Part shown: positions 7,761 through 47,217 of the stretch, piece by piece
Layout: every line of letters starts with the position of its first letter
Position numbering within the stretch: the stretch's first letter is position 1
IMG/VR virus record: IMGVR_UViG_3300024346_000012
Reading direction: 5' to 3' (one strand)
From: a virus
DNA length: 64,000 bases
Notes under the pieces: model-generated
Told to the model about the DNA's origin: nothing
Databases searched by the model: none
The model's input: only the letters and a program-made list of their open reading frames with translations
Made by a program: the position numbers and the translations under genes

Positions 7761-7761
7761 T

Positions 7762-17103: not shown

Positions 17104-17140
17104 TTTCTTTTTTCCTAGATTAAATTAAACATTATAAAAG

Positions 17141-17355
17141 TTGCCACTTTTCTGTTGCTAGGTAAGTGGCCAACCCCCTGTGATCATGCCGCTAAGGCAA
17201 ATCCAGATGGTGCAAAATTGTCGTTTGCATTTGTGTTTGTAAACTTGAATACATGTCGATCCTAGTTCAGCCCCATCAGAAATACACCTTATGTACTTGT
17301 GGTGGAGCTGCTCGGTACTGCCCCGAGGTCCATACATCCGTTATTAACGCTTACA
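17141..17355 (-). ncRNA. ssrA: Circularly permuted two-piece tmRNA (alphaproteobacterial type)
   Basis: Acceptor piece about 17355-17300 ending CTCGG-GGCAGTA-CCGAG CAGCTCC-ACCA; 25-nt intervening sequence; coding piece from 17274 (GGGGCTGAACTAGGATCGAC); G3-U70 pair; tag ANDNFAPSGFALAA-stop at 17228-17184; 3' GCAACAGAA motif. Confidence 0.95.
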
Positions 17356-17361
17356 TCTTAT

Positions 17362-17390
17362 ATATTACTTTATAGCCAATACTTTGTACA
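17362..17390 (-). promoter_or_regulatory. Sigma70-like promoter TGTACA-N17-TAATAT for the tmRNA
   Basis: Predicted start near 17355 coincides with the 5' end of the helix-2 strand. Confidence 0.7.
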
Positions 17391-17459
17391 TAGCTTTCAA
17401 CAATGTATCTGTCCTGTGATATAATTATTACACTTCCGTTCTCGGTATAAGCGTAATAC

Positions 17460-18842: not shown

Positions 18843-19243
18843 TACGCTACTTCCTCCATATTATAAACTAAATTAGCGGCTGACATTTCAGGCTTAAATC
18901 CGATTGCAACAAAACCATAGTTAGCTACAACCATTACATTACCTTCTACATCAACGATGATATCACCGACTGAAAGTGAAGACATACGTGAGAAACGCGT
19001 AATCGCTGACTCAGGGCCAATGTTACCGATTTCAAAGCAATGCTCAGGAGTTTCAGCACGAATGTCAGAAACATGAGTATAAAGACCATCTGTAAGAGCT
19101 TGATCAGCGATACCAGAAATGTTATTTCCGCTAAAATCAAAGTTCATCTCTGTTTTAGCTTCACGCTTAGCGTTAGTTTCGCCAGCATTGATGGCTGCGA
19201 TATCTGCTTTAGAGTATTGAATTTGCCAAACTGTAAAAATCAT
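18842..19243 (-). CDS. Early protein with YodL-like SLSVGDI motif
   Basis: RMSSLSVGDIIV; start MIFTVWQ after GGAG RBS. Confidence 0.55.
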   Translation of the reverse strand: MIFTVWQIQYSKADIAAINAGETNAKREAKTEMNFDFSGNNISGIADQALTDGLYTHVSDIRAETPEHCFEIGNIGPESAITRFSRMSSLSVGDIIVDVEGNVMVVANYGFVAIGFKPEMSAANLVYNMEEVA

Positions 19244-19268
19244 GTTATTATCTCCATTTGATAATACC

Positions 19269-19297
19269 ATCCTACAGCATATTAAAAGCAATGTACA
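19269..19297 (-). promoter_or_regulatory. Sigma70-like early promoter TGTACA-N17-TAGGAT
   Basis: Promoter family match; 21-bp identity with the unit at 25487-25507. Confidence 0.75.
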
Positions 19298-19431
19298 CAA
19301 AAAAGCGCCGATCGAAATCGTTTAAAAACAACAACTTGTAAAATAAATTTATTTAAACTGCTTTAATGCTTGTAGAATGTATCTTCTATGCAGTCTATAT
19401 TCTGCCACTATCTGAGCAAATGATTTTTCTG

Positions 19432-20502
19432 TCATACTAGAAACTCCGCTAAAGTTGCTTTTTGTTGTTTTGCTTCAAGCGCTTCAGGGCGCCAAATATC
19501 AGGATACATAGGCTTATCATTTTTATCCATCATATAATAACCTGAAGCATTTTTAAGACCTCGGCCAGAACGATCGAGATTATTTAAAAACCTGATATAG
19601 ATGCATAAGGTATCTTCGTGTGCCACAGCATTTGTACCAAGGTTTTCTGTAAGATCTGCTAGTGCTCGATCGTGATATTCTACTTGACTCATCCCTTTTG
19701 GCTTTCGAAACATTTGTTCGATTGCTTGTCTAGCATTATTACCACAATATAAACTACTATTAGGATCTACATATTGTGGATGATACGTAGCAATGTCTGC
19801 AATGGCTTGTGCATATGGAAAGTTCCAACGACGAATCCCGTTGTCTATATTTTTCTGGTTAAGTCTATCAGTTAAACTCTTTTGTTCAAGCGGTGGATTA
19901 CCTGCATTATAGTTTTCTTTAAGATGTTCTGTCAGTTCGCCCATTAGTTCTAAACCAAAACTCGTTATATGTTCAGGAAGATTCATACCTTTCTTCGGAG
20001 TAGGGTTCTGGTTACCAATAGTAGAAAACATCTTTTTACCAGCTTTTTTCCACTGCTTCATAAGATTCGCCATCTCATCTGCAGTTTCATACATTCCGAA
20101 ATGACTAACTATGCTATGATGATATCCGTGCCATGGTTTGCCAGCATAAAATCCTGATCCAGTACTACGATGCGTATAATAAGCAAACACATATTCTCGA
20201 AGAGTCCATTTATTTGTCACATATTTCTGAACTCGTTCTTGTACCTCTTTCGGCCTTTTCTTAAATACTACTTGATTAGTGCCGTGATTTAAATCTTGGT
20301 TTACGTTATTGAATCCTTCATACGTTCTAGACACACAGTTGTAAGCAGGGATATTTTGCATTAACTCGTCGTTCACGTGTTCGTCAGCTTCAGGTCCAAG
20401 ATAATCAGCATCGCCGATTAGGCAATTCTCTTCAAGCCATTTTGAACGAGGCCAGAAATAATCCACATAACAATCGTAATTTGGTCGTCTTTCTAATTCC
20501 AT
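19432..20502 (-). CDS. Putative DNA base-hypermodification transferase (aGPT-PPlase / amino acid:DNA transferase-like)
   Basis: Ordered motifs NCVSR, FPYAQAIADI, YCGNNA and HEDTLC; C-terminal clamp-type motif ATLAEFLV. Confidence 0.5.
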   Translation of the reverse strand: MELERRPNYDCYVDYFWPRSKWLEENCLIGDADYLGPEADEHVNDELMQNIPAYNCVSRTYEGFNNVNQDLNHGTNQVVFKKRPKEVQERVQKYVTNKWTLREYVFAYYTHRSTGSGFYAGKPWHGYHHSIVSHFGMYETADEMANLMKQWKKAGKKMFSTIGNQNPTPKKGMNLPEHITSFGLELMGELTEHLKENYNAGNPPLEQKSLTDRLNQKNIDNGIRRWNFPYAQAIADIATYHPQYVDPNSSLYCGNNARQAIEQMFRKPKGMSQVEYHDRALADLTENLGTNAVAHEDTLCIYIRFLNNLDRSGRGLKNASGYYMMDKNDKPMYPDIWRPEALEAKQQKATLAEFLV

Positions 20503-21437
20503 TACATAAAACTTTCTAGTGTGTTTTCGCTCTCACCCCAATTCATACGGCGATAAAACATGGGATTAAGATGTACTGATTGGGGTCTTTCCATTTTATC
20601 TATAGCATATTTTTCTTCATTCATATCATACCAAGCTTGAGGTGGTTTTACTAATTTCATTTCATATATTTTCATACAGCCTTCCATATCCCAAGCTGCT
20701 TTCATTCTTTCATCTCTTGAGCCCCAAAATGGTTGCTTCTTGTAATACCCGGTCTGAGGAAGTTTACGGCCTTCGAATTCAATTGGCCACGGCACCGCGT
20801 ATTCTACTTCAATGCCAAGACTCTTTCCGAAATCGCTATATGCTTCGACCATTTTATAGATGCTAGTTTCTACTCTGCATAAATGGTGACGTACATCAAT
20901 ATTGCCAAGAGATATGGTAACACCTTTATGATGCGGTTTGATATGAGACCTGATGTATGCAAAATCTTCATTGATTTGGCCAAACAATGTAGTACCATCT
21001 TGCTTGACTACACTACTATTCTTCGGTGCATATGCGCACACGTGACTGTCACCGATTGCTAACCATTCGTGTGGTAAATCACTGCCTACAAGAGGCTTAG
21101 CTTCAGAAAGCTTCTCAGTTATTGCATCGCACCAATCTTTGTCAGTTACGTCTTTTCGCTTCTTTAACTGCGCACCGTAGTCAACTGGAGAGCCGTCCAG
21201 TACTGTTATTGTTTCTGAAGCGAGCAAGTTATCGATCCAAACCTTAATAACTTCGTTAAACCCACCCATAAGATTAATAGTACCACCAAAATTAGCACCA
21301 GGCAAAAGATAAACATCTTTGTGCTTTCCATTCGTATGGTCAATGGGTACATTAAGATTTTCTGACCAAGTTCTGGCATAGCCATAACTGTGGCTTGATG
21401 TCTTCTTAGGTATTTTACTAAAGGTTCCGACTATCAT
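20502..21437 (-). CDS. SGNH-hydrolase-like protein in the DNA-modification locus
   Basis: IGDSH, LGNIDVRHHL and SVHL blocks; C-terminal NTLESFM. Confidence 0.5.
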   Translation of the reverse strand: MIVGTFSKIPKKTSSHSYGYARTWSENLNVPIDHTNGKHKDVYLLPGANFGGTINLMGGFNEVIKVWIDNLLASETITVLDGSPVDYGAQLKKRKDVTDKDWCDAITEKLSEAKPLVGSDLPHEWLAIGDSHVCAYAPKNSSVVKQDGTTLFGQINEDFAYIRSHIKPHHKGVTISLGNIDVRHHLCRVETSIYKMVEAYSDFGKSLGIEVEYAVPWPIEFEGRKLPQTGYYKKQPFWGSRDERMKAAWDMEGCMKIYEMKLVKPPQAWYDMNEEKYAIDKMERPQSVHLNPMFYRRMNWGESENTLESFM

Positions 21438-21874
21438 TCTATAAACTCATAATCAACACCAGCTTCACTAAAGAGTTCCGATGAATATGCAAACGACTCG
21501 ATCCATCGTTGTGGGTATTCTGCTAGCGGCATAACAACTCTCTTAATTCCAACCTGAATAATACCCTTTGCGCAATCAGAGCAGACAGGTAATCCATGAA
21601 CATAGAGAGTTGCACCGTCAAGTGATACACCATTATATGTAGCATTGTATATGCAGTTCATTTCAGCATGAACTACAAACTTATACTTAACATCTTTGTT
21701 TGCATATCGATCAAAACTATCACTAATTCCTCTTGGAAATCCGTTGTAGCCTTGAGCAAGCACTTGTCCTTTTGATCCTACAGCAATCGCACCGATTTTA
21801 GATGAAGGATCTTTCGACCAATTAGCGACTCCAGATGCTAGATCAAGATATCGCTTATCCCATTTATTAACCAT
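21434..21874 (-). CDS. cd: dCMP deaminase
   Basis: WSKDPS, GYNGFPRG, HAEMN and PVCSDC motifs; likely true start MVNKWDKRY. Confidence 0.9.
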   Translation of the reverse strand: MVNKWDKRYLDLASGVANWSKDPSSKIGAIAVGSKGQVLAQGYNGFPRGISDSFDRYANKDVKYKFVVHAEMNCIYNATYNGVSLDGATLYVHGLPVCSDCAKGIIQVGIKRVVMPLAEYPQRWIESFAYSSELFSEAGVDYEFIE

Positions 21875-21895
21875 AATATAAACCTTTTTTTGTGT

Positions 21896-21951
21896 CGAGT
21901 AGGACTTTCGCCCTACTCGTTTATTATACACTATTTTTTCATGATTGTAAA
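21896..21951 (-). promoter_or_regulatory. Promoter TTTACA-N17-TATAAT followed by a 5' leader hairpin with GAAA loop
   Basis: Near-consensus boxes at 21946-21951 and 21923-21928; hairpin CGAGTAGGGC-GAAA-GTCCTACTCG. Confidence 0.75.
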
Positions 21952-23322
21952 ATAAATAATTCCACCGAGTGCGGCACCAATTACCCATCCGAATCCTGAT
22001 AAGAAGCCAAGAACTGGCAACCATACCGTTCCAAGAGAGAACGCTGCAGGCAATGCCCAAGCTGCGAGTGCTTTCTTGTTCCAACCATTGTCATAATAGT
22101 ATTCACCATCTTCAGATGCATTAAATAGTTCATCAATATCTAGTGCTTCTTTCTTGATCATATAGTGATCGACCATCATAATACCATAGATCGGAGCGAG
22201 TACAGCGCCAAAGGTATTTACAAAATTGAAGATACCCATTTGACTTACTACTGAAACCCAAAGACCACCAATTACGAGAGCAAATGCCGATGTAATCAAA
22301 CCACCAAGTCTAAAGTCGATCTTAGCTGGTGCTAGATTGGCAAGATCATAAGCAGGTGGAATAAAGTTAGCCACCATATTAATGCCAACAGTCGCAAAGA
22401 AGAACGCGATAGCAGCTACAATAGTAAGTGGTAAAGATCCGACAGCTGCCACAATATCAGTAGGATTTGTCATTGGTTCACCGAAGACTACAATAGTACC
22501 AGCAGTAACTACTAAAGCGATTAACGAAAAGAAAGCAATGTTTAATGGCAAGCCAAGTAGATTGCCCTTTCTCATTTCCTTTTGTGATTTTACAAATCTA
22601 GAGAAATCACCGTAGTTAATTACAACAGCCGCAAAGTATGCAATCATTGTACCAACTACTGCGAACCACGCACTGAGTGCTGTTCCACTATAATCACCTA
22701 CGCCTTGAAAGATAGTACCTACTTCTGTCATGAGTCCTGATCCGGCCGCATTCCAAATAAGAAGAGCAAGAACAATCATAACAGCATATACAAACACTCC
22801 CGCAAAATTTAAGAACTTAGCGATAGTATCAATGCCTTTCATAAACAAGAAGATCTGAAAACCCCACACAATTAAGAACGATACCCAATCAATGCCAGTC
22901 ATACCAAGCCACATACTCGATGGCTCAATTCCTAAAAGAGATTTAATTAAGAGAGACAAAGCTGTTGATGCAAAATAAGTTTGCGCGCCATACCAGAAGA
23001 TGGCTACAACAGCTCGTAATACAGCCGGAAAGTTAGCGCCCTTTACACCCATACTCGCTCGAGCCATAACTGGAAATGGAATGCCATGCTGTACAGAAGG
23101 TTTACCCATTAGGTTTACCAGCACCATAACAAAAAGTCCTGCTACCAAAATAGCAGAAAAGACAGACCAGCCAGAAAGGCCATATGATAAGAATAGTGAT
23201 GCTGCTAAAGTATATCCAAAGAGTGATTGAATATCGTTAGACCATACATTGAAAATTTCAAACCAACCCCATGTTTTTTTATCCTCGGTTACAGGGCCGA
23301 GGTCTTCATTATGAAGTTCCAT
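21931..23322 (-). CDS. NCS1 family nucleobase:cation symporter
   Basis: About 12 TM helices; GIPFPVMARASMG, WYGAQT, NYGDFSRF and NMVANF motifs. Confidence 0.92.
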   Translation of the reverse strand: MELHNEDLGPVTEDKKTWGWFEIFNVWSNDIQSLFGYTLAASLFLSYGLSGWSVFSAILVAGLFVMVLVNLMGKPSVQHGIPFPVMARASMGVKGANFPAVLRAVVAIFWYGAQTYFASTALSLLIKSLLGIEPSSMWLGMTGIDWVSFLIVWGFQIFLFMKGIDTIAKFLNFAGVFVYAVMIVLALLIWNAAGSGLMTEVGTIFQGVGDYSGTALSAWFAVVGTMIAYFAAVVINYGDFSRFVKSQKEMRKGNLLGLPLNIAFFSLIALVVTAGTIVVFGEPMTNPTDIVAAVGSLPLTIVAAIAFFFATVGINMVANFIPPAYDLANLAPAKIDFRLGGLITSAFALVIGGLWVSVVSQMGIFNFVNTFGAVLAPIYGIMMVDHYMIKKEALDIDELFNASEDGEYYYDNGWNKKALAAWALPAAFSLGTVWLPVLGFLSGFGWVIGAALGGIIYFTIMKK

Positions 23323-23365
23323 ATTAAGTTCCTTGTTTTGTTGTTGTGTAGTAGATATAGCAGTT

Positions 23366-24079
23366 TTAAACTACTATATCAAAATGCCGTTCATAAACGT
23401 GCAAATTTTGTACTTGCCACGTCATCAAGGCTGGTTCAATAGCCTCGCCACTGCCGCTTGCAGTGCGTTCAAAACGTCGGAAGTTATAATCGTCGCATAG
23501 TTTTTGTACTACATGCATTTGCCATGCGTAATCATTTTTGTAACCAAAGACTACGTCATTAGAACGCATTTGGACTACAGCATGAAGCAGACCATCACGA
23601 ATATAATAAGTGACAGCGTTGGTACAGATGAAATCATTTTTGCCGTTATCTTTATAATCAAGCCAAATGCTAGGGCGATTATAAACCATGGTAGCACGTC
23701 TTCCATCAGGATTCTCTAGCAGTTCTGTTAATACATTATCGTACTGTTTATTGTAAGTATCACTGAAGATAAGTTTGCCATAGTTAGAGTTAATCTCACC
23801 ATGTGAATTGGAAGCATACTTCCATGCTGCTGGAGGATCACGATGTTCACCAAAAATGTCATTGATATTAGTCGACATGTTATGGTACCATAGCAGTTCT
23901 TGGTTAATGTAATCCTGGTTGGGTACACCAAATATAGACTTTTCGGTTGCAATAAAAGATGCACCGATTAATTCAATAGTTTTAGCGCCAGTTTTATCTA
24001 TAGTGAATGCTTCATCTTTAAGTTCATTAATAAAGAATTGCCGTACGTCGTTTACGCTATTTGCTTTCATATCTATCAT
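23366..24079 (-). CDS. 42: dCMP hydroxymethylase (T4 gp42-like)
   Basis: DKTGAKTIELIGASF, GEINSNYG, DFICTN, MRSNDVVFGYKNDYAWQ (cytosine-type Asp) and LHVYERHF closely track T4 gp42. Confidence 0.9.
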   Translation of the reverse strand: MIDMKANSVNDVRQFFINELKDEAFTIDKTGAKTIELIGASFIATEKSIFGVPNQDYINQELLWYHNMSTNINDIFGEHRDPPAAWKYASNSHGEINSNYGKLIFSDTYNKQYDNVLTELLENPDGRRATMVYNRPSIWLDYKDNGKNDFICTNAVTYYIRDGLLHAVVQMRSNDVVFGYKNDYAWQMHVVQKLCDDYNFRRFERTASGSGEAIEPALMTWQVQNLHVYERHFDIVV

Positions 24080-24365
24080 CCATATCTTTACCTTCTTCGT
24101 ATGCTACACGAAGAATCATAAGTTGCGTTAAAGCGTGATCGAGATGGAGAAGACCAGACTCAGGATCAGTATCTTCTTTATTCCAATATGCCATTAAGTG
24201 ACGCTGAAGAGAAGAATAAGATCTACTCCACTCAGTCGTGTTTATGTCATCACGCCAGTTGTTTTCACCGTATTTCTTTGCACCAAATTCTAGTACTCTC
24301 GCTGCAGATTCAATAGCGAGAGTTGGTACAAGGTGAATCGGGGGTTTGCCATTATCGTATTTCAT
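24057..24365 (-). CDS. dATP/dGTP diphosphohydrolase-like (DUF5664) protein
   Basis: KYDNGKP, FGAKKYG-x2-NW, RHL and DPESGLLHLDHA motifs. Confidence 0.8.
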   Translation of the reverse strand: MKYDNGKPPIHLVPTLAIESAARVLEFGAKKYGENNWRDDINTTEWSRSYSSLQRHLMAYWNKEDTDPESGLLHLDHALTQLMILRVAYEEGKDMDDRYESK

Positions 24366-24371
24366 AATTGT

Positions 24372-24400
24372 ATTCTACCATATTATAGAGGATATGTAAA
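24372..24400 (-). promoter_or_regulatory. Sigma70-like promoter TTTACA-N17-TAGAAT
   Basis: Promoter family match directly upstream of the DUF5664-gp42 genes. Confidence 0.65.
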
Positions 24401-24811
24401 TCTATTATTTTCATCTATGTGTTTTAATGCTTCTTTTGCGTCAACATAATCGATGACTGTATATTCTACTACTTGATTTTCTTCGAGCGGACCACCCCAG
24501 GGCCTCGACCACATCCAAATTCCAAGCTGATCGATTTTACCAGCTTTAATTTGTTTTTGAATATACTCAGATACATGAACACCAGACTTAGAGTACATTT
24601 TATAATCAATGGCTCCAAGTATCTGATGATATGTATCATATTCATAGCCATCATATAAAGTCTGAAATTGATCAACCTTTGCTTGATGGAATTCTACAAA
24701 TTCAGAATCCCATCTAAAATAGGGGTTTGGTCGATTATCTTTATTGACCTTTTCGTCACGCTGAATAATAAAAGCTTTATCGACCTTAGCTTTAAAGTGA
24801 GTCATTAACAA
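24383..24811 (-). CDS. Hypothetical protein
   Basis: 142-aa ORF in operon context. Confidence 0.6.
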   Translation of the reverse strand: MLMTHFKAKVDKAFIIQRDEKVNKDNRPNPYFRWDSEFVEFHQAKVDQFQTLYDGYEYDTYHQILGAIDYKMYSKSGVHVSEYIQKQIKAGKIDQLGIWMWSRPWGGPLEENQVVEYTVIDYVDAKEALKHIDENNRFTYPL

Positions 24812-25074
24812 TAATCTCTTGTATACACGTCAAAGTGAGTGGCATTTTCAATTGGTGTGTCGTGAGCATATGTAGAAAGGCGAGGGCCGCGAGGACGAAT
24901 ACGAAGACCTTTTGTAGAATATTTTTTGTAGCCAATAGCTTTATTAAATTTATTAAGATATTTGTTTTGGTTGCGAATCAGTAGTTTTAATTCTGAAATC
25001 GCAGGATCATCAATATCAGAACAAGAAAAACGATAGCTATCAGAAGAACGATTTTTAAAAGTTACGAATACCAT
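24805..25074 (-). CDS. Hypothetical early protein
   Basis: RGPR and ATHFDVY motifs; GGAG RBS. Confidence 0.6.
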   Translation of the reverse strand: MVFVTFKNRSSDSYRFSCSDIDDPAISELKLLIRNQNKYLNKFNKAIGYKKYSTKGLRIRPRGPRLSTYAHDTPIENATHFDVYTRDYC

Positions 25075-25075
25075 A

Positions 25076-25246
25076 TTATATTACTCCATTTTCCATAAGT
25101 TGAAAGATTTCAGTTGCAGTTGCATTGAACTCTTCTTGCGAAGATTGAGAGAAGTCAAAGCCAAGACCACCCATGTTATCAAAGATTTTTTCTGCATAGT
25201 CGAATGTGCAGTTGAACATTTTTTCGATTTCACGAATATAAAGCAT
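25076..25246 (-). CDS. Hypothetical early protein
   Basis: Likely start MLYIREIE (TAATG overlap); GFDFSQSS. Confidence 0.55.
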   Translation of the reverse strand: MLYIREIEKMFNCTFDYAEKIFDNMGGLGFDFSQSSQEEFNATATEIFQLMENGVI

Positions 25247-25449
25247 TACCAGATTACCTCCTCGGTTACAATCATGCGACGACCTAAGTTTTGTTCTACG
25301 CAATTTTCGGTGTAAGTTTTCACGGCACCATCGTCGTACATAACGCTAATAAGTGTTTCGCCATCCGCATCATCGTGAATAGAAGTGATTTCACCTTTTG
25401 CAGTATAATCTCTATATTGACGAATAATTCCCATTCCAACTTCAAACAT
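25246..25449 (-). CDS. Small SH3/Tudor-like hypothetical protein
   Basis: FEVGM, GEITSI and VMYDDG strand pattern; AGGAG RBS. Confidence 0.55.
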   Translation of the reverse strand: MFEVGMGIIRQYRDYTAKGEITSIHDDADGETLISVMYDDGAVKTYTENCVEQNLGRRMIVTEEVIW

Positions 25450-25472
25450 TGTTTTCTCCTTTTGTTATAACC

Positions 25473-25501
25473 TTTATAACACGTTTAAAAAGCAATGTAC
25501 A
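25473..25501 (-). promoter_or_regulatory. Sigma70-like early promoter TGTACA-N17-TATAAA
   Basis: Promoter family match. Confidence 0.75.
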
Positions 25502-25502
25502 C

Positions 25503-25528
25503 AAAAAAATGCGCCGAAGCGCATTTTT
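25503..25528 (-). terminator. Intrinsic terminator with UUCG loop abutting an early promoter
   Basis: AAAAATGCGC-TTCG-GCGCATTTTTTT. Confidence 0.85.
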
Positions 25529-25558
25529 GTTTTGTTTGTAATCAATGACTTAGAATTT

Positions 25559-26041
25559 TTATCCAAATCTAGCTAAATACTGCGCTATTCGTCCAACAAA
25601 AGGTAGTAGCATAAGAGCCATAAGTAGGTTCATTCCAGTATGTGCCATTGCAATTCGTAGCGTATCACCTTTAGGCATTCCATCAGAGACAAATAAACCA
25701 GCCAGCCATATTGTACCTGTCGTACCAATATTAGCACCAAGAACGCATGCAATAGCTGCAGGCAGCGGTAAAGCACCAGAAGCAACTAATGCAATAATAG
25801 CAGTAGTAGATAGTGAAGATGATTGCCATAGCAATGTCATGATAATTCCACCAAAAAACATATAGATCGGACTACCTAGAAACCAGTTAAGGTGTTCCAT
25901 ATTCCCCATAGATTTCATTCCACCTGAGAATGTCTTAAGTCCAATATAAAAAATGACCAGCCCAACAAGGGCTGTTATCATCGGGTTTCCTAGATCCATT
26001 TTCTTCACCTTTTTCCAAAGTTTTTCACCTTCATTTTTCAT
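25559..26041 (-). CDS. Na+/Pi cotransporter family protein (single repeat)
   Basis: LWQSSSLST and LGANIGTT signature motifs; several TM helices. Confidence 0.85.
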   Translation of the reverse strand: MKNEGEKLWKKVKKMDLGNPMITALVGLVIFYIGLKTFSGGMKSMGNMEHLNWFLGSPIYMFFGGIIMTLLWQSSSLSTTAIIALVASGALPLPAAIACVLGANIGTTGTIWLAGLFVSDGMPKGDTLRIAMAHTGMNLLMALMLLPFVGRIAQYLARFG

Positions 26042-26463
26042 TAGACGATACTCGGCAGATCGCCATGATTGCCTTCGTGTGATGGCCCTTGCCAACCACT
26101 TGGCTTTAGTAAATCGGGCAATCCAAAACGATTAGGGCGACCAGGCTTTACGCCTGGCTCTTTTGCCATATTAGCTTGGTATATAGCATCCCATGCTTTA
26201 TTAGCATCAACACCCATAATATCAAGAGTGCCGATAGCAAATACGCACATATCAATTAGACCATCAACGACTTCCTCTGCATCAGAATTATTAATAGCAG
26301 ACAATGTCTCTTGGTATTCTTCACCGATCATAAGCATACGAAACATGAGATATTTCTGCATAAGATCTTTATTTTCTTTATTGGCTTCAAACCACTCACG
26401 TACGCCGAATTTGTTATGCATCATGTACATGTCATTAGCAAAATCACTCATTTTATTCTCCAT
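26041..26463 (-). CDS. MazG-like all-alpha dNTP pyrophosphatase (possible dCTPase/dUTPase)
   Basis: EEYQE, EVVDGLID, ANMAK and DLLKPSGW motifs. Confidence 0.8.
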   Translation of the reverse strand: MENKMSDFANDMYMMHNKFGVREWFEANKENKDLMQKYLMFRMLMIGEEYQETLSAINNSDAEEVVDGLIDMCVFAIGTLDIMGVDANKAWDAIYQANMAKEPGVKPGRPNRFGLPDLLKPSGWQGPSHEGNHGDLPSIV

Positions 26464-26477
26464 ATTTAATATAATTT

Positions 26478-26506
26478 ATTCTACAATATTTTACAAGCAT
26501 TGTACA
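26478..26506 (-). promoter_or_regulatory. Sigma70-like promoter TGTACA-N17-TAGAAT
   Basis: Promoter family match. Confidence 0.7.
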
Positions 26507-26508
26507 TA

Positions 26509-26751
26509 CTATAATAATCCAAGCTGAAAGTTTCCATCAAGTTTTTTAATTCCTAACGCCCAATTCTGCGCAGCGTCTTCAACATAGCGTGTGGTCTTAT
26601 TGGGGAAATCCTCTTCGAAAAACTTAACATCATTATCATCAAAGTATTTTATAAAAGCCACTTCTTCTTTAAAGTCCATCCATACTTCCGCATATCCCTT
26701 TCCGCTATCTGCGTGAAAGGTGCTAATCTTTCTTTGACGACCGTGAAACAT
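26509..26751 (-). CDS. Hypothetical protein
   Basis: YVEDAAQNWALG motif; AAGGAG RBS. Confidence 0.65.
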   Translation of the reverse strand: MFHGRQRKISTFHADSGKGYAEVWMDFKEEVAFIKYFDDNDVKFFEEDFPNKTTRYVEDAAQNWALGIKKLDGNFQLGLL

Positions 26752-26754
26752 ATT

Positions 26755-27441
26755 TTACTCCTTTATAAAGTCTATGATACTAGGATATATTATACTTATG
26801 GCGTTCGCTATTTCTTTTGCCAGGTCCATGTGCTCTTGTTGTGTACCATTTGAGGATCTTAGATCAATATAGTGAATCCATGACCTAATAGTACCATTTA
26901 CGTAGAGCCGAGAGACAGTATTTCCTTCTGGTAAAACTGCACGGGCTTGCTCTTTCGCAATACCGTTTGCTAGTGCCCAGCTGTATGCCGCCTTTGAGCA
27001 GGCGATCACATCGGCTTGCATCTCAGCCCAACGTTCTTGTAGATCGGCATCATCTGTTACGACAGAGTTTTGACGATTTTTAGGATCTTGCATTCGAGCA
27101 TCACGAATTACAAAATTATCATTAAGATCACGGATGTCAGCATACCGCTGAGAAAACTCTTGAAACGAAAATGATCGGTGACGTAGAAACTGTCTAGCGA
27201 TATCTCTTGTTGTTTCAATTTCCATGGTAACAGAAGCCATTTCAAACGGAGACCAATGCTTATGCTCAATAAGATAATTAAGAAGTTTTGCTGTAGTTTT
27301 TGTATTACTTTGATTATTTGGATTTGATACTCGAGCGCAATACGCAATCAAATCTTGAATGTTATCTAAACCCATAATACCAAGATCACCTGAGTGAACA
27401 TGTCTTACTGGTTGAGTATATGATAGGAGACGAGTTTTCAT
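26755..27441 (-). CDS. thyX: Flavin-dependent thymidylate synthase
   Basis: HWSPFE and RHRSFSFQEFSQRY signature motifs. Confidence 0.95.
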   Translation of the reverse strand: MKTRLLSYTQPVRHVHSGDLGIMGLDNIQDLIAYCARVSNPNNQSNTKTTAKLLNYLIEHKHWSPFEMASVTMEIETTRDIARQFLRHRSFSFQEFSQRYADIRDLNDNFVIRDARMQDPKNRQNSVVTDDADLQERWAEMQADVIACSKAAYSWALANGIAKEQARAVLPEGNTVSRLYVNGTIRSWIHYIDLRSSNGTQQEHMDLAKEIANAISIIYPSIIDFIKE

Positions 27442-27557
27442 TACTTACCTTGACCTCTGTACTTTTTAAAACTTCTTTTCTTTGATTTGTTCATAGAAGA
27501 CGTTTTAACATTACGACTTCCGATACTTGTCTTTTTATTTTTTTCTATTACAGCCAT
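27441..27557 (-). CDS. 38-aa basic protein ending KKYRGQGK (not in ORF track)
   Basis: MAVIEKNKKTSIGSRNVKTSSMNKSKKRSFKKYRGQGK; AAGGA RBS; TAATG coupling to thyX. Confidence 0.7.
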   Translation of the reverse strand: MAVIEKNKKTSIGSRNVKTSSMNKSKKRSFKKYRGQGK

Positions 27558-27570
27558 TATTTATTTCCTT

Positions 27571-28938
27571 TCATTGTATTTTAAAGTCCTTAAACCTTTG
27601 GTTCATTTCAGTTTTATCAAAAGTGGGAACATCATTTACTACACCTTCAGTTCCATTTTCTTCATCTATCAGCCTCATACGAGATTTATCAATTCCAATA
27701 ACAAATCTCTTATTGTTATTAGGATCGTTATATCTATTCTTTAATTGTTTAACCATTATTTGGCCTTGAGCTTCAAGCTCTTCTGAAGATATAAGGGCAA
27801 ACATTAGATCTGCCGTTGCGGGTAATCCAAAAGACTCGCTCGTATCTTCAAGCCCAGGATCCGAGCTACCAAAACCACTACGCGTCGTTTGCGTTGCAGA
27901 TACAAGCGGGACGTTAAACTCAACTGCAAGTCCTCGTAATTCTTCAGCAATTGCTTTGATATAAGTGTAAGAGTTAATTGCACCACCCATTCCTTTCATT
28001 CGAGAAGAAGAACATATATTAAGGTAATCAATAAATATCATTTCTGGCACAAAGTTCTTCTTGAGTTTAAGCTCATTTAACAGTGCTCTAAAATGGCCTG
28101 TATGAGCAGAACCAGTGGGATATTCTTTGATAATGAGCTTGCCGTTTGTTCTAGATGCGAGCTTATCTACCTTCGAAGTTAGCATCTCTTTAGTGATATG
28201 CTGTAGCTGGTCAAGAGGGATATTTAGCAGATTGGCATCAATCCGTTCTGCAATACGTTCTTCTGCCATTTCCATAGTTATGTATAATACGTTTTTACCT
28301 TGAGTTAAAACATTACCTGCCATGTGGCACATAAACAATGATTTACCTACACCTGTACCAGCAAGAGCAATGTTAAGAGTTTTGTTAGGTAATCCGCCTT
28401 TTGTGATTTGATTAAAGTATTCTAAATCAAAAGGAATACGCTCTTCATCTTCATGATAAAAATCATATCGTTTTTCAACATCTTCAATATAGTCGTGACC
28501 TACTGAAGGATCAAAGGTTACTGCTAAAGCTTTTGTTAGGAGATCTGGCATAGCATTCTTAGTAAGAGACTTATGCTTCCCATCAATAATACTTATTGAT
28601 TCCATGACAGCATTATGAATAGCCCTATCTTGACACCATTTTTCAGTAGTGCTCATAAGCCATTCTTGATCAGCATTATCCTTTTCAAACAGCACTGGAA
28701 TAATCTCCATGGCTGCACCATACATATCTTGATTAAACCTATCAGATCCATCGACTTCAATCTTAAGAGAATCTTTAGTCGGCAGTGTATTGAATTTTGC
28801 TACATATGCTGCAGCTTCTTTAAAAAGAAGATTGTAAACTCCTTGAAAATAATCTGGCTGAATAAACGGTAGAACCTTACGCATATAAGATTCGTTATTC
28901 AACACATTTCGTAATATTACTTGTTCTACGTTACTCAT
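27571..28938 (-). CDS. 41: Replicative DNA helicase
   Basis: Walker A AGTGVGKS; YITMEMAE, IKEYPT and SESFGLPATAD motifs. Confidence 0.95.
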   Translation of the reverse strand: MSNVEQVILRNVLNNESYMRKVLPFIQPDYFQGVYNLLFKEAAAYVAKFNTLPTKDSLKIEVDGSDRFNQDMYGAAMEIIPVLFEKDNADQEWLMSTTEKWCQDRAIHNAVMESISIIDGKHKSLTKNAMPDLLTKALAVTFDPSVGHDYIEDVEKRYDFYHEDEERIPFDLEYFNQITKGGLPNKTLNIALAGTGVGKSLFMCHMAGNVLTQGKNVLYITMEMAEERIAERIDANLLNIPLDQLQHITKEMLTSKVDKLASRTNGKLIIKEYPTGSAHTGHFRALLNELKLKKNFVPEMIFIDYLNICSSSRMKGMGGAINSYTYIKAIAEELRGLAVEFNVPLVSATQTTRSGFGSSDPGLEDTSESFGLPATADLMFALISSEELEAQGQIMVKQLKNRYNDPNNNKRFVIGIDKSRMRLIDEENGTEGVVNDVPTFDKTEMNQRFKDFKIQ

Positions 28939-31063: not shown

Positions 31064-31497
31064 GTAAGACCTCCAATGTCTTTTTTAAGTTCTTCTCCAT
31101 ACACTCTATCGCGTAAATCGCTAGTGGAGAATCTATGGTCTCTTTTATTAAAATAAATTTCTATTCCTCGGGCAGAGCAAGTAGCTCTTCCAGTAAATTT
31201 TCCGTCTTTATATTCTTGACCTATAATTCTAACATCTATATCAAACATTTTTAAAATATCTTCTATGTCTGTTTCGGTCTCATAGGGTATAATTTCATTT
31301 ACATATTTTACAGCTTGTAGTTGCATCCATCTTTCTACTAGTGTTTGAACTGGTGTGTTTTTTTCAGATCTTTCCGCGGCAGGATTTACTTGTAAACCAC
31401 AGATTAGATAATCACATTGATTTTTTGCTTCTCTTAGCATAGCGATATGACCTGCGTGTAACAAATCAAAAGTGCTAAATGTTATTCCTATAGCCAT
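31060..31497 (-). CDS. TagD-like cytidylyltransferase
   Basis: STFDLLHAGH and RDHRFSTS motifs. Confidence 0.85.
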   Translation of the reverse strand: MAIGITFSTFDLLHAGHIAMLREAKNQCDYLICGLQVNPAAERSEKNTPVQTLVERWMQLQAVKYVNEIIPYETETDIEDILKMFDIDVRIIGQEYKDGKFTGRATCSARGIEIYFNKRDHRFSTSDLRDRVYGEELKKDIGGLT

Positions 31498-33657: not shown

Positions 33658-34604
33658 TATTGTATAACTCCATTTTTATATGCGTATTCAAGCGCATTAT
33701 TAGCTTCGGTATCTAATGGCCTATTTTCGTATATATTAGCAGTATCTTTATCAAGCTGTCTTACTAGATCAACTATCTGGCTTGCAGTAATAGGATATTG
33801 CTTTTCAATAGCGTTTCCAGCAATAGAGATCATCATCTTATAAATCATTCTATATCTTCCAGTGCCATCAATGTTAGCGATGCTCATATACTCACGTAGA
33901 AGGGTTTTATTTACAAACGGGCAATCGCTATAGCTTGACCACACATAACTAGTATTATCTAGTTTAGATTTTCTGTAATCAATAATTTGTTCTTTCCAAG
34001 CATCTGGTAATCTGTCTAAAAAGTCTTTACTATTTTGTTTTTCGCTGTATTCCCATTTAGCCATAAGCGCTGATGGATCTATATCTACTCCATCGTCATT
34101 AGAGAATATGAAGTTATTAGCTTTATTGTAAGCTGCAGGCACATAATACATACGAGATAGGTCTTTAGTCTGTTTATCTCCAAGAGAATTAATCTCTGAG
34201 TTTAGAGCAAACCAAAAGTGTTTAATTCTATCCGCTTCAAGCCTTTCTGTAAGAGGAAATACAATACGAAACTTAGGTAGAGTATCATTGCTGCTAGCAG
34301 TAGAATAAACTATAAATCTATAGTTTCCAAATTTACCTATAAGATCACTCTCTAAGTCTCCTTGTGGCTCATAGTCGTCAACATCTACAGCAGCCCAACC
34401 TCCCCAATCTAGAACATTTTTATTAGCGCGTGTGGTATTCTTAACATAAGAAGAAGGAGAGATTAGCTCAGCATCTAGCTTATCATTTAATGGCCGTTCG
34501 GATAACTTGTATAGAAACTTCTTAAACTTATCCCATGAGTCAAAGTCTAGACGCCTATGAGTTTTATTATCATATCTATTTTTAAAAACAGTAAGAGAGT
34601 ACAT
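33657..34604 (-). CDS. AEP-superfamily primase/primase-polymerase-like protein
   Basis: AVDVDD, YSTASS, KFRIVFPL and KDLSRMYYVP motifs; helical C-terminal domain. Confidence 0.7.
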   Translation of the reverse strand: MYSLTVFKNRYDNKTHRRLDFDSWDKFKKFLYKLSERPLNDKLDAELISPSSYVKNTTRANKNVLDWGGWAAVDVDDYEPQGDLESDLIGKFGNYRFIVYSTASSNDTLPKFRIVFPLTERLEADRIKHFWFALNSEINSLGDKQTKDLSRMYYVPAAYNKANNFIFSNDDGVDIDPSALMAKWEYSEKQNSKDFLDRLPDAWKEQIIDYRKSKLDNTSYVWSSYSDCPFVNKTLLREYMSIANIDGTGRYRMIYKMMISIAGNAIEKQYPITASQIVDLVRQLDKDTANIYENRPLDTEANNALEYAYKNGVIQ

Positions 34605-37186
34605 TACATAAAAAATTCTTCTAAGGTTGCAACAGGTTCAGGTTTCCAATCGACCGCATCTAGAATAGGTAGAAGAGGGTCAATGAATGTCTTCTGAAAC
34701 ATTATACCATAGTCTACATACTTATGTAAACCAATTTCTTTTGGTAAAACGCCTGGAAACGAAATAACATTTTCTTTTATAGGGTTAGGGAGTTTAAGAT
34801 ACAAAAACTTGATCTTTTCTCCAGTTTTAACTAACTCATATCTTTTATCTAGCTTATAGTCTTTGACAGTTTTATTGTACAAAATAGAACCTCGTACATG
34901 GATAGGAGTACCTTTAGCATATATGGTACGCCTATCTTTCCACTTGTCAAGTTGAGTTACGCCACGAGGAAACGCTACCTTTTCAGGATCTAAAGAGCTA
35001 AACTCGTTTTTAAAGTCAGATATAAATTTCTGTGTAGTTCTTTCGTCACTATTTATAATTACCTTAAATATTTCTTTAAACTTATCGCGTACAACCTCAG
35101 GAGTAGAAGACTTAATAGCTTCGATACCCATCATCTTAAGTTTAGGCTCAGCAAACTGCACGCCTTCAGAATTGTGTACATTTAGAATATACCTTTTCTT
35201 AGCCGTCCAGATGCCACGATCTGCAATAACTTCACGAGCCATTTCCATACGAGGTATATAGCCATTCATAACAAAGAAGAACTGGTCGTAGGATTTTGCC
35301 ATGACTGGTTCAAAATGGTCTTTACATATTTTGTCTAAGAATTTGACAGGATCTTTTGGTTCGAACTTCTTAACAAGGGGACCCATATTGACATAGATTG
35401 AATCAGTATCAATAGCGACTATATAATCCTTATTTGCTTGTGTGATATCGTTCATAGCTTTGTTCATACACTGCTCAGCCCACTTGATAACAGTCTGGCC
35501 AGTAAGTGTAACAGATTCTGCTAGAGCGTTATCGAAGTACTTAAAGTACTTGTTAGCAAGAGCGCCATATAAAGAGTTAAGTAAGATTTTAATAGCCATC
35601 TGGTTATTTTCAAGCTGATTGATCTTAGACTCTAGTTTTTTATCTTTAGTTTTTTCATATTCAGATTGAGTGGCAAGCATTTCTTTTTTAATAGTGCTTC
35701 TTTCTGCATAATAATCTACAATCAACTCTGGAATAATACCCTGTTTAGAGCGCTCAAACGGTACACCAGAAGCACACACGGCATACTTGTCGTCTATAGT
35801 TGTAGATCTATCATGCTTGGAAAGATAGTAATCAACTCCTTGTGGGAACCGAATAGTGTGATCTCTACATATAGTTTCTGGTGATATATTATGTTGAACA
35901 ATTATATTAGGATATAGAGAGTTAAGGTCGAATGATACAACCCAGTCATGAGATCCGACATGAGGATCTTTTACGTAACCACCAGCAATTGCATGCGACT
36001 TACCTTTTTCTCTGGCTTCAGAACCAGGCTTTGCTACTGAAGTTTCTGTAGCACCAACTATTGCATATGGTACCTTTTGAATTTGTTTAGCTGGACATAT
36101 CACATTGTTATTAAGTAGTCTGCGATAAATGATAGACTCCCATATGCCAACAACACCAAATGTATCGCTCACGTTTACACCACCACGATATGCCATAGTT
36201 AAGGCAAGAGAGATAAGACCCATCTTTTGGTCAATGCGATCTACGAGTTGAACATCTTTAATGTTATAGTCAATAAACTTTTGATGATCTTCTTTATATA
36301 GAGTATAAAGATTACCATGCTCTTCGTACGATAACTTCTTTTCACCAAGGACTGTATAAGCAATGTGGTCAAGCTTAAAGGATTCTTGATTGCCGTATGA
36401 GTAACCAAACTTTTTAAATAGTTCAAGGTAATCTGCCTGCTGAATACCTACTAACTCAAAGGCCAAAAGCTCACGATTTAGAGATTTAACAGTGCGTTCA
36501 TTTACTGAACCCCAAGGTGAGAGTCTTTTCATAGCAGCTTCGGAGCCAAGCATAGAAATGCGGTTTACTATATAAGGGATATCAAAGAAGCGTGAATTCC
36601 AACCAGTAATAACATCTGGATAGTTTTTAGTCCAATATCCTAAAAATTTGGCAAGCAGATCTTCTTCTGAATTGCAATGATGGTATTGAATTAAATCTCC
36701 ATGCATATCAATTTCGGTTTTAGAAGAGTCATAAGTATCTAAACCCCACACTTGGTAAACAGAAGACTTACTTGACTTAAGTGCTATAGAAATAATAGGG
36801 TATGCAGCTTCTTCAGGTGTAGGAAATCCATTATCAGATGCAACCTCGATATCAAAGTTAACGACATTCACATCGCTAATGTTAAATTTTATATCTTTTG
36901 GAAACTTGTCAGTAATAAATTGGTGAATATAATTGGTGGTGCCATGTACAGCAAAATTAGGTACGCCTTCATATTTTTCTGCGAATTCCTTTGCCTCGCG
37001 CATAGAATCAAATTGTATGGGTTGTAATGGTTTACCAAATAAAGAATGGTATCTAGAATCTTCTCTGGATTCCATATACAATGTAGGTTTAAATTTGTAT
37101 TTTTGAGATATTGCTGCTCCGCTATCGTTATAGCCTCGGTACAATATTGAATTACCGTATCTGTTTACGGATGTATAAAAAGCCAT
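34604..37186 (-). CDS. 43: Family B DNA polymerase
   Basis: FDIEV exonuclease motif, [23 protein letters not shown] and KKRY; C-terminal ATLEEFFM; start MAFYTSV. Confidence 0.97.
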
Positions 37187-37208
37187 GGGTTCTCCTATCA
37201 ACAATACC

Positions 37209-37237
37209 ATTCTAACACGAAAAAGGGGAGTTGTAAA
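37209..37237 (-). promoter_or_regulatory. Promoter TTTACA-N17-TAGAAT for gp43
   Basis: Promoter family match; overlaps a terminator hairpin. Confidence 0.7.
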
Positions 37238-42169: not shown

Positions 42170-42400
42170 TTATTCAGACTCAGCTGCCTGATCTTGTTGG
42201 AATGTTTCACACATCTGGATCATTTGTACACCTTGATCTCGTAACTGACCGAGTGTAGATAGTTCTTCACCCTTTACAGCTCCACGCTGTACCATTGTAT
42301 CAATTACTGCAATAGTTGAACGACAGATACGATTTGCTAGATCGTATGTCGGTGCATGACTTTCATGCGCTAGTTTTACTTTATCTTCTTTAGACATCAT
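42170..42400 (-). CDS. Hypothetical protein
   Basis: IDTMVQRGAVKGEELSTLGQLRD; start near MSKEDK. Confidence 0.6.
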   Translation of the reverse strand: MMSKEDKVKLAHESHAPTYDLANRICRSTIAVIDTMVQRGAVKGEELSTLGQLRDQGVQMIQMCETFQQDQAAESE

Positions 42401-43074
42401 TGTTCTCCATATGTAGATGTTTTTTCGAGAGCAACCCAATAAGTAACATTGGTATTTTGCCCTTTAAATTCTGATATTAGTTTGGATGATACTCTTACAT
42501 CATATGTATCGGTAATCATTTTTAAGTTAGCTATATTTAAAATAAATCTAAAGTCTTCTTCTTTATAACCTCCATCAACTTCAATTGAGTATTCATTGGC
42601 TGTAGCGTTTTCTGGGTCGAATACGGACAGTTTGATGGCTCCACTAGATGGTTCAATACAGAACTGACTAGTTCCAAGAGCAGCTGAAGCTCTTTTTAAG
42701 GAGTTAAGCGTATTTTCATCTAGGGTAAACCATACATCTTCATCGGGCATGTTAATAGGCTTAGTGGGCTGAGTTAGCATCTCAATATCTGCGTAGTAGT
42801 ACCTTAGGTTTTCTCTGCCGCTTTGGCTTTTAATGACCATATGATTTTCTTCAAACTTGACATTTGGGTTATCAACCAATCCTAACACATTTAGAAACTC
42901 TTGTAAATCATAAATTCCTATACAGTTTTCAAATGTTTCGGGTAACTCCGCTTTGGCTAGAATGTTTTTGGCCGGAGATATAGTCATTAAGCTATTTCCG
43001 GGTTTGATTACTATATTACTATTGATTGCAGCGAAGTTCTTAAGAACGCTGACGGTATTTCCACTTATTTCCAT
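42397..43074 (-). CDS. 45: Sliding clamp
   Basis: LKNFAAINSNI, IYDLQEFL and YWVALE motifs. Confidence 0.93.
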   Translation of the reverse strand: MEISGNTVSVLKNFAAINSNIVIKPGNSLMTISPAKNILAKAELPETFENCIGIYDLQEFLNVLGLVDNPNVKFEENHMVIKSQSGRENLRYYYADIEMLTQPTKPINMPDEDVWFTLDENTLNSLKRASAALGTSQFCIEPSSGAIKLSVFDPENATANEYSIEVDGGYKEEDFRFILNIANLKMITDTYDVRVSSKLISEFKGQNTNVTYWVALEKTSTYGEQ

Positions 43075-46594: not shown

Positions 46595-47191
46595 TTAGTT
46601 TCCCATAAATTTAGTAAGGTCTGAATCTACCATCACTTCTCTTTTCTTTCGAACTACTTTTTCTTTCTTAATAAATTTTTTAATCTTAGTATCTTTTTCT
46701 TTTATCTTATCCATTCGATCTTTTAGTTGATCTAGAAAAGTATTCAGTACGGCTGTAGAACCAACATCTTCATTTCCTCCATGTACATATTGATCGATAC
46801 CAGACTGAGCAAGATAACGCATTTTTAATTCTTGTTGCTTTTTTTCTTTTTCGATTCTTCGAAGAAAGGCATACCAACTAATCTGAGTAAAATAAGCAAA
46901 AGCGTTTGGCTTGCCAGTTCGAGTAGCTGCATCAACATTATAGTTGTTAATAGCTTTTAGACAGTTTTCTACAGCATCCATAACCATTTCTTCACGATAT
47001 GTATATCGAATAAAATTAGATTTATGCGACAAACCTTCAGCTATTTTTAGAAAGCATTGAGCTATATAATCTGGAACAAGAGGAAGCTCTAACTCCTTTG
47101 ATTTTGATTCGCTTAGTTCTCTACAATAATCAACTACAGCTTGAGAAAACTCAGCGTTATTTACGTAGTGAATGCTTTTCTTTTTTGCCAT
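46595..47191 (-). CDS. 55: Late-transcription sigma factor
   Basis: HYVNN, CFLKIAEGLS, YTYREEMVMDAVENC and NAFAYFTQI motifs. Confidence 0.95.
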   Translation of the reverse strand: MAKKKSIHYVNNAEFSQAVVDYCRELSESKSKELELPLVPDYIAQCFLKIAEGLSHKSNFIRYTYREEMVMDAVENCLKAINNYNVDAATRTGKPNAFAYFTQISWYAFLRRIEKEKKQQELKMRYLAQSGIDQYVHGGNEDVGSTAVLNTFLDQLKDRMDKIKEKDTKIKKFIKKEKVVRKKREVMVDSDLTKFMGN

Positions 47192-47217
47192 AACAAAATC
47201 CTTCATGTAATGTTTAT

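Follow-up and report, generated by a model that had tools for sequence, protein, structure and literature searches.

A conserved gene pair beside a T4 gp42-type dCMP hydroxymethylase suggests a kinase-free, clamp-tethered decoration of hydroxymethylcytosine in a marine T4-like phage

The DNA analysed here, 64,000 nucleotides of IMG/VR virus record IMGVR_UViG_3300024346_000012 (the window), comes, on its sequence, from an uncultured marine T4-like myophage. Our analysis showed that positions 19432-24365 hold two adjoining open reading frames (ORFs), ORF1 and ORF2, close to a dCMP hydroxymethylase of the T4 gp42 type, and that the pair is a real, conserved and uncharacterised module. The best explanation as a whole, to which we give a probability of about 0.58, is that ORF1 and ORF2 form a two-part enzyme that would decorate 5-hydroxymethylcytosine (hmC) in DNA without a kinase while tethered to the gp45 sliding clamp. 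An initial annotation of the window had proposed an hmC hypermodification locus with clamp-tethered enzymes here, and all the ORFs it claimed were present at their coordinates on the minus strand. The features on which the argument turns are the following, where AADT denotes amino acid:DNA transferase.

19432..20502, minus strand: ORF1, AADT/aGPT-PPlase-fold protein of 356 aa, helical and HhH-glycosylase-like (AlphaFold2 model, structure matches)
19435..19458, minus strand: ORF1 C-terminal tail ATLAEFLV, putative gp45-binding motif (disorder, conservation, rarity)
20502..21437, minus strand: ORF2, 311 aa, Gly-rich N-domain (1-116) and SGNH/GDSL-fold domain (~120-303) (AlphaFold2 model, phrog_13881)
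20505..20525, minus strand: ORF2 C-terminal tail NTLESFM, putative gp45-binding motif (disorder, conservation)
23366..24079, minus strand: gp42-type dCMP hydroxymethylase (T4 gp42 match, E 1.5e-64)
34604..37210, minus strand: gp43 DNA polymerase, tail ATLEEFFM (tblastn to T4-like polymerases)
42397..43074, minus strand: gp45 sliding clamp (Pfam gp45-slide_C, E 1e-14; 31% identity to T4 gp45, full length)
46595..47206, minus strand: gp55 late sigma factor, tail SDLTKFMGN (phrog_234, E 6.5e-52; T4 gp55, E 1e-19)

ORF1 had been described as an aGPT-PPlase/AADT-like protein, which its fold and active-site motif support but sequence models, none of which match, do not. The AlphaFold2 model, built from 16 homologues (predicted local distance difference test, pLDDT, 85; predicted TM-score 0.81), is all-helical, with residues 337-356 disordered (pLDDT < 50), and the HhH-like transferase fold on which the initial annotation depended is present in it. 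Among 48,161 representative PDB chains the top match was PaMx11 gp46 (8z2m; Z 8.9, root-mean-square deviation 4.5, 210 residues aligned), followed by queuine-salvage DUF2419 proteins and HhH glycosylases at Z 6-7.7. The best matches in BFVD were 'Amino acid:DNA transferase domain' proteins (TM 0.78, E 4e-13), with helical domains of 5-hydroxymethyldeoxyuridine (5-hmdU) kinases and aGPT-Pplase1 further down the list, and the neighbouring clusters in the ESM Atlas were labelled PF18723/PF18724. PaMx11 gp46 is the 5-phosphomethyl-dU glycinyltransferase in which Cys247 attacks C6 while Glu243 and Thr244 hold the metal (PMC11472151). ORF1 has a motif, E296-D-T-L-C300, with the same spacing as E243-T-I-L-C247 of gp46, the two being matched by motif and by position in the domain. 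Across 58 members of the ORF1 family, down to 22% identity, E296 was kept in all 58, D297 in 54 and C300 in 57. Because of these fold matches and the conserved Glu..Cys motif of the gp46 type, ORF1 looks, from its model, like a divergent branch of the AADT superfamily, with the catalytic pair apparently intact, outside current sequence models. No match to ORF1 was found in Pfam, PHROG or NCBIfam; ORF1 and 15 homologues gave nothing against Pfam at E up to 10, nor did 10 distant relatives match Pfam, and a tblastn search with ORF1 of 50,697 phage records also returned nothing.

ORF2 had been called SGNH-like, and this is borne out by its fold (Z ~11, Foldseek E 1e-4) and by its invariant S, G, N and H residues. 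Its AlphaFold2 model, from 35 homologues, has a pLDDT of 88. Residues 120-303 gave matches at Z 9-11.4 to dozens of esterases and O-acetyltransferases of the SGNH/GDSL kind; the structure search gave 61 chains at Z of at least 8, and the top 50 rows were nearly all SGNH/GDSL. The residues invariant in the 35 sequences are S131 in GDSH (129-132), G148, N179 in GNID (178-181) and H289 in SVH (287-289). No match of ORF2 to Pfam Lipase_GDSL was found. Residues 1-116 form an extra Gly-rich domain, which is highly conserved, and residues 301-311 are disordered (pLDDT < 50).

The initial annotation had presented ORF1 and ORF2 as separate enzymes; both are present, but they are best read as one two-part enzyme. 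The stop codon of ORF2 overlaps the start codon of ORF1 (TAATG). In a set of 80 related loci, which are the IMG/VR viral contigs found with the ORF2 family, an ORF1-like gene adjoins the ORF2-like gene in 63, and most of the remaining contigs end on the relevant (upstream) side. At least 7 metagenomic proteins of 639-790 aa are fusions of an ORF2-like N half (E 1e-33 to 1e-56) and an ORF1-like C half (E 1e-72 to 1e-116); one such fused gene is flanked by a dCMP deaminase/dUTPase pair and a thymidylate-synthase homologue. In some relatives a fold-type-II pyridoxal phosphate (PLP) enzyme is inserted between the two genes (phrog_7093, E 2e-34; Pfam PALP below cut-off), and an unrelated contig repeats the order ORF2-like gene, ORF1-like gene, PLP enzyme. 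Some also carry a TagD-like cytidylyltransferase or a second AADT-like gene, a paralogue scoring 0.98 by language model against PF18723/PF18724 clusters. In the closest large relative, a 152-kb IMG/VR contig (L018, 10001-12826) whose polymerase is 85% identical to that of the window, ORF2 is 91% identical, while the place of ORF1 is taken by a PLP enzyme and an AADT-like protein just 34% identical to ORF1. This suggests that the transferase part is swapped between near-identical phages, giving different adducts. The module is common in marine T4-like phages, with more than 175 protein clusters and 128 IMG/VR matches. In several lineages a small DUF6552 membrane protein is conserved immediately upstream of the ORF1-like gene (L036 6737-7036; L084 7080-7358).

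The supply of hmC rests on the hydroxymethylase, and the genes around it deal with nucleotide metabolism.

21434..21871, minus strand: dCMP deaminase (Pfam dCMP_cyt_deam_1, E 3e-19); its 3' end shares 4 nt with the start of ORF2
24057..24365, minus strand: small all-alpha NTP pyrophosphohydrolase-like protein (Pfam dGTP_diPhyd_N, E 1.5e-29), overlapping the start of the hydroxymethylase
26041..26463, minus strand: MazG-like pyrophosphohydrolase (Pfam PRA-PH, E 5e-9; phrog_671)
26755..27441, minus strand: ThyX flavin-dependent thymidylate synthase (Pfam Thy1, E 5e-42)

A T4 gp42-like dCMP hydroxymethylase with the cytosine-specifying Asp, and ThyX as a separate gene, had both been claimed, and both identifications hold. 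The hydroxymethylase matched T4 gp42 (PDB 1B49/1B5E) at E 1.5e-64, with 49% identity to the T4 protein and ~51% to annotated gp42 proteins. The T4 nucleophile Cys148 (FICTN) and the cytosine-specifying Asp179 (KNDYAW) are both conserved, MRSNDVVFGYKNDYAW here versus MRSNDVVFGFRNDYAW in T4. ThyX, the dCMP deaminase, the two pyrophosphohydrolase-like genes and the hydroxymethylase make up a T-even-style nucleotide block, in which both pyrophosphohydrolase-like proteins are, by sequence, candidates for the dCTPase role. A hydroxymethylase is visible in 44 of the 80 related loci, and 39 of these 44 have the Asp signature RSNDV..NDYAW. The link to hmC is stronger than the sequence of one window would make it, because the pair is conserved beside cytosine-type hydroxymethylases in many contigs and is fused elsewhere. 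A T4-type glucosyltransferase had been noted as missing from the locus; homologues of the T4 alpha- and beta-glucosyltransferases were absent from the whole 64-kb window by tblastn (E > 0.7).

The published thymidine clusters combine paired aGPT-PPlases and a PLP enzyme with a P-loop 5-hmdU kinase (PMC8989533). In agreement with the initial annotation, no partner kinase was found in the window: the P-loop proteins there are a helicase, the clamp loader, gp46, the terminase and the like, with no candidate among them and none near the locus, and a GK[ST] string inside ORF2 is due to chance. The gene set of the relatives (PLP enzyme, AADT paralogue) has the make-up of a thymidine cluster minus the kinase, with the SGNH protein as a constant extra member, and the SGNH::AADT-like fusion mirrors the kinase::HMUDK_hel architecture. 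Since no kinase was found and the SGNH protein occupies its place both in the cluster and in the fusions, ORF2 would take over the kinase's task of making a leaving group.

Both proteins end in tails that, judged by sequence and modelling, most likely dock on the gp45 clamp. The tails of T4 gp43, gp55 and gp33, which are acidic-hydrophobic, interchangeable and each preceded by a divergent unstructured linker, bind gp45 (PMC2988020); in the T4 genome gp43 ends ...SLDFLFG and gp55 ends ...SLDFLYEAND. Like these epitopes, the ORF1 and ORF2 tails are extreme C-terminal, acidic-hydrophobic and set behind a variable disordered linker. The claimed likeness of ATLAEFLV and NTLESFM to the polymerase tail ATLEEFFM proved sound: the strict pattern [ST]LxxF[FLM]x{0,1}$ picked out exactly ORF1, ORF2 and the polymerase among the 99 proteins of the window, where 0.03 would be expected from the internal frequency of the pattern. 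A looser tail pattern added gp55 alone; the SDLTKFM reported for it is there, but the protein ends SDLTKFMGN, so that the motif lies two residues inward, as in T4 gp55. Of 15 close homologues of ORF1, 11 keep the motif behind a variable linker. Most of 120 ORF2 homologues end in [ST/Q]L[EDST]xF[FM]x, and the tail is kept in 66 of the 80 viral loci. In all 16 contigs that carry both genes, the ORF2-like and polymerase tails share the motif, and in one lineage both have changed to an I-F ending (TMDDIFG, PLEIFMS). Many relatives have the polymerase-like tail on the SGNH partner alone, and one tail would suffice if the two proteins work as a complex. Members of the family from outside the T4-like phages, all the fused forms among them, were without the motif.

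Among cultured phages, ORF2-like genes were found only in T4-like ones (38 Aeromonas and 2 Stenotrophomonas records), among them Aeromonas phages 44RR2.8t, 31 and 25. According to Petrov et al., these three have genes 42 and 56 and no glucosyltransferase, and further modification of hmC was left open (PMC2993671). In the genomes of 44RR2.8t and phage 25, gene 42 lies beside the split gene 43. Residues 1-334 of 44RR2.8t ORF233c (795 aa, phrog_17781) align with ORF2 (hhalign E 1e-38), the rest being a fused C-terminal domain, for which hhalign with the ORF1 family was null (a profile-versus-single-sequence comparison of low sensitivity). Phage 25 ORF225c (phrog_13881; L002 3767-7038) has other neighbours: ahead of it lie genes for a UDP-galactopyranose mutase (Pfam GLF, E 5e-54) and for a 358-aa protein (phrog_14998) that ends SCLDLIMA, an arrangement that could be a galactofuranose-based variant of hmC decoration. 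Both ORF233c and ORF225c are annotated as hypothetical. Like ORF2, they occur in genomes with gene 42 and have tails resembling that of their own polymerase: the Aeromonas polymerase ends LFDMFDI, the phage 25 protein TLELFDI and the 44RR protein SLDGLFAI.

From these observations we propose the following mechanism. The gp42-type hydroxymethylase would turn dCMP into 5-hydroxymethyl-dCMP before replication, while ThyX and the dCMP deaminase would make dTMP separately. ORF2 and ORF1 would then act together on hmC already in DNA. In the reading we prefer, ORF2 would create a leaving group, for instance by esterifying the hydroxymethyl oxygen. ORF1 would flip the base out, and its Cys300 would attack C6 as in AADTs, which would make the substituent on the 5-methylene exchangeable, and ORF1 would displace the leaving group with a nucleophile supplied by the host. 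Because the flexible tails would dock on the gp45 clamp, the decoration would follow the fork. What we infer here is that the tails bind the clamp and that hmC in DNA is acted on, together with which step comes first and what is formed. Extending this to a widespread pathway is more tentative, and we hold it to be less likely than not: an SGNH enzyme would activate the hydroxymethyl group of hmC in DNA, acylating it or taking some other route without a kinase, a divergent AADT would swap in a metabolite, both would sit on the gp45 clamp and decorate the new strand as it is made, and the variable neighbours (PLP enzyme, AADT paralogue, cytidylyltransferase) would give a family of cytosine adducts.

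Several results weigh against the proposed mechanism. No sequence model ties ORF1 to the AADT families: a search of PDB sequences with the 58-member family profile came back empty, and comparing the family with PaMx11 gp46 by hhalign was null, although a profile-versus-single-sequence comparison has low sensitivity. For a helical protein, the Z of 8.9 is within the range that can reflect common architecture, as the tool itself warns, and the Glu..Cys correspondence between ORF1 and gp46 comes from reading the motif and not from residue-level superposition. The C-terminal domain of 44RR ORF233c matched HMUDK_hel weakly (E 9e-4, below the Pfam cut-off). As for ORF2, the block V Asp of SGNH enzymes, three residues before the His, is missing in its family, where Q, S or G is found, and the locus has no gene for an acyl donor. 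We know of no SGNH enzyme that acts on DNA. A search with PF18748 (5-hmdU kinase) found none in 4 relatives of 101-152 kb, but the control genomes gave no signal either, so this negative is weak evidence and absence from whole genomes is unproven. In phage 25 no ORF1-like partner was detected by hmmsearch with the ORF1 profile against p227, and since its ORF2-like gene is paired with a mutase instead, ORF2 may not be tied to AADT chemistry.

The tails have exceptions. The ORF1-like protein is tailless in 22 related loci, and in others an 'LPI' ending is present on 15 ORF1-like and 9 ORF2-like proteins where the polymerase keeps SLESFFV; tail use is thus not uniform. Co-folding of the clamp trimer with both tails, which the initial annotation had named as a check, lent weak support to docking, with a score of 0.54 against 0.04 for the best of 3 controls. 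The mark was reached by 58 of 80 solved complexes and by 2 of 110 mismatched pairs, but the passes at 0.60 or under comprised only 7 of the 80 complexes and both of those mismatched pairs. Between runs, no fewer than 61% of contacts agreed, with a partner pLDDT of 43 or more, and the pass may reflect memorisation by the model, because the complex of the RB69 clamp with the polymerase peptide has already been solved. The ending '...(T/I/V)LPI' was seen on ORF1-like proteins, and in one lineage on the ORF2-like protein too (L066 6490-9319; L081 7104-8177; L038-L040), and may be a second docking motif. Co-variation of this ending with the polymerase tail was considered and rejected, as the polymerase there has its SLESFFV tail.

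Of the alternatives, the one that survives best, though we consider it unlikely, reverses the roles of the two proteins on hmC in DNA. ORF1 alone would exchange the hydroxyl through its C6-thiol adduct, and ORF2 would tailor the group or make O-acyl-hmC as the end product. Cytosine-5 methyltransferases reportedly exchange the hydroxyl directly with thiols, the catalytic motif of ORF1 is complete, and esterases or O-acyltransferases are what SGNH enzymes typically are; moreover, the ORF2-like gene of phage 25 has other partners, and in published pathways tailoring enzymes follow the AADT step (PMC8989533). Against this, the ORF2-like protein is the most constant member of the module, nearly always bears a polymerase-like tail, and stands N-terminal to the AADT-like domain in the fusions, in the way that kinase and helical domain are linked, all of which suits a core step better than optional tailoring.

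We regard it as improbable that the tails bind another shared replisome partner, or that their resemblance to the polymerase tail has no function. The weak co-folding score of 0.54, the 'LPI' tails in lineages whose polymerase has the usual tail, and the many ORF1-like proteins without any tail would fit such a view. It is opposed by the position of the tails, their acidic-hydrophobic character and their disordered variable linker, all as in the T4 gp43, gp55 and gp33 epitopes, by the confinement of the motif to T4-like phages and its chance expectation of 0.03, and by the way it tracks variants of the polymerase tail in two lineages.

A role in repair or exclusion, with ORF1 as a glycosylase-like remover of unmodified cytosine or uracil at the fork and ORF2 as an unrelated esterase, appears very improbable. 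The fold is shared with 8-oxoguanine and 3-methyladenine glycosylases and endonuclease III (Z 6-7), and C-containing DNA is known to come under attack from hmC phages (PMC2993671), but the invariant motif is the Glu/Cys pair of AADTs and not the Asp/Lys of glycosylases, the nearest structures are AADT and HMUDK_hel proteins, and fusion to an SGNH domain, like the presence of a PLP enzyme and an AADT paralogue alongside, is a trait of biosynthetic clusters. It is scarcely credible that the substrates are free nucleotides (hm-dCMP or hm-dCTP) still to be incorporated, for although the genes sit in a nucleotide-metabolism block (deaminase, hydroxymethylase, pyrophosphohydrolases, ThyX), the fold is a DNA-binding, base-flipping one and clamp-type tails make sense only for proteins that work on DNA.

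The proposed system resembles two known ones in part. T4 glucosylates hmC through alpha- and beta-glucosyltransferases, and RB69 arabinosylates it. With this T-even pathway (gp56, gp42, gp1, then glucosyltransferases) the system shares the gp42 orthologue, the logic of supplying hmC before replication and, as proposed here, decoration after synthesis; everything after gp42 differs, the decorating enzymes being of different folds. The T4 alpha- and beta-glucosyltransferases end in FDIITK and KKAIDL, without a clamp motif, unlike ORF1 and ORF2. In thymidine hypermodification (PaMx11, M6, ViI, SP10, PhiW-14; Lee et al., PMC8989533; PMC11472151), a dUMP hydroxymethylase is followed by a 5-hmdU DNA kinase, an AADT/aGPT-PPlase and PLP or other tailoring enzymes. 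There, as here, a hydroxymethylase of the thymidylate-synthase family supplies a 5-hydroxymethylpyrimidine, an AADT-type fold with a Glu...Cys motif is present (in ORF1), a PLP enzyme and an AADT-like paralogue may join it (in the relatives), and the work on DNA is, or here would be, post-replicative. The present system is set apart from the thymidine pathways by its base, which is cytosine (Asp179-type hydroxymethylase) and not uracil; by the SGNH protein that stands in place of a P-loop kinase, none being found here, and is fused to an AADT-like domain in some phages; and by the polymerase-like tails of ORF1 and ORF2, ORF1 matching no aGPT-PPlase, ADDT or HMUDK_hel Pfam model. Those tails are nearly identical to that of the phage's own polymerase, a likeness shared with the SLDFL[FY] epitopes of T4 gp43, gp55 and gp33 (Geiduschek and Kassavetis, PMC2988020), although here, unlike in the known gp45 clients, the motif is on predicted DNA-base-modifying enzymes and clamp binding is a prediction from sequences and models. 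In a full-text literature search, no account was found that links hmC to an AADT-like or SGNH enzyme, none of clamp-tailed modification enzymes and none of base modifiers as gp45 clients.

The rest of the window is T4-like in layout. The gene order gp55 - (epimerase) - gp47 - gp46 - gp45 - gp44 - gp62 ... gp43 is the same as in T4, and the polymerase has 55% identity to that of Phage C48C1 and ~45% to cyanomyophage polymerases. Among 50,697 phage genomes there was no near-identical record for this phage, and megablast of the locus gave nothing. Two further features are listed here.

21931..23322, minus strand: NCS1 nucleobase permease, full-length (Pfam Transp_cyt_pur, E 6e-79)
17139..17394, minus strand: permuted transfer-messenger RNA (tmRNA) (Rfam RF04321, 83 bits; alpha_tmRNA RF01849, 74.7 bits)

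The permease was considered as a part of the module and rejected: only 4 of the 80 related loci carry one, and it is an insertion between the hydroxymethylase and the deaminase. Transporters do recur beside the module, a sodium:solute symporter preceding the ORF2-like gene in 44RR2.8t. The tmRNA, found with Rfam, was not detected by ARAGORN; a phage-borne two-piece tmRNA of alphaproteobacterial type hints at an alphaproteobacterial host. A 28-codon ORF at 19348-19434 (minus strand) has its start on the stop codon of ORF1 (ATGA overlap). A scan for sigma-70 promoters over 19000-27600 gave 36 sites against 30.4 expected, which is no enrichment; one good site, at 21951-21923 (minus strand), precedes the block of deaminase, ORF2 and ORF1. 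Between uvsX and the primase/polymerase region, 30215-33328 (minus strand) holds a block of nucleotide-sugar genes: a truncated UDP-glucose/GDP-mannose dehydrogenase-like protein (282 aa), a TagD-like cytidylyltransferase (152 aa), a cupin, a CMP-KDO-synthetase-like cytidylyltransferase (222 aa) and a KDO8P/DAHP-synthase-family protein (210 aa). A link of this block to DNA modification is possible, given that a TagD-like gene (7355-7768) directly precedes the ORF1-like gene in L084. The epimerase of the gene order above is a nucleotide-sugar epimerase-like gene at 45837-46589 (minus strand; phrog_540, E 1e-37), between gp55 and gp47, which is the position of the alpha-glucosyltransferase gene in T4.

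To our knowledge, every AADT pathway characterised so far begins with 5-hydroxymethyluracil and depends on a DNA kinase. Phage hmC is known to be decorated with sugars, and reportedly also with a carbamoyl group. If the proposed mechanism is true, an AADT-type enzyme working on hmC with an SGNH partner and no kinase would be new DNA enzymology and would probably yield a natural base not described before. The clamp tails point to a coupling between base decoration and the replication fork, which would resemble DNMT1-PCNA in eukaryotes. Since the module is common in marine T4-like phages, it could affect how their DNA behaves in sequencing, restriction and defence studies, and the presence of an ORF2-like gene in cultured Aeromonas phages makes the question about hmC left open in the 2010 review directly testable.

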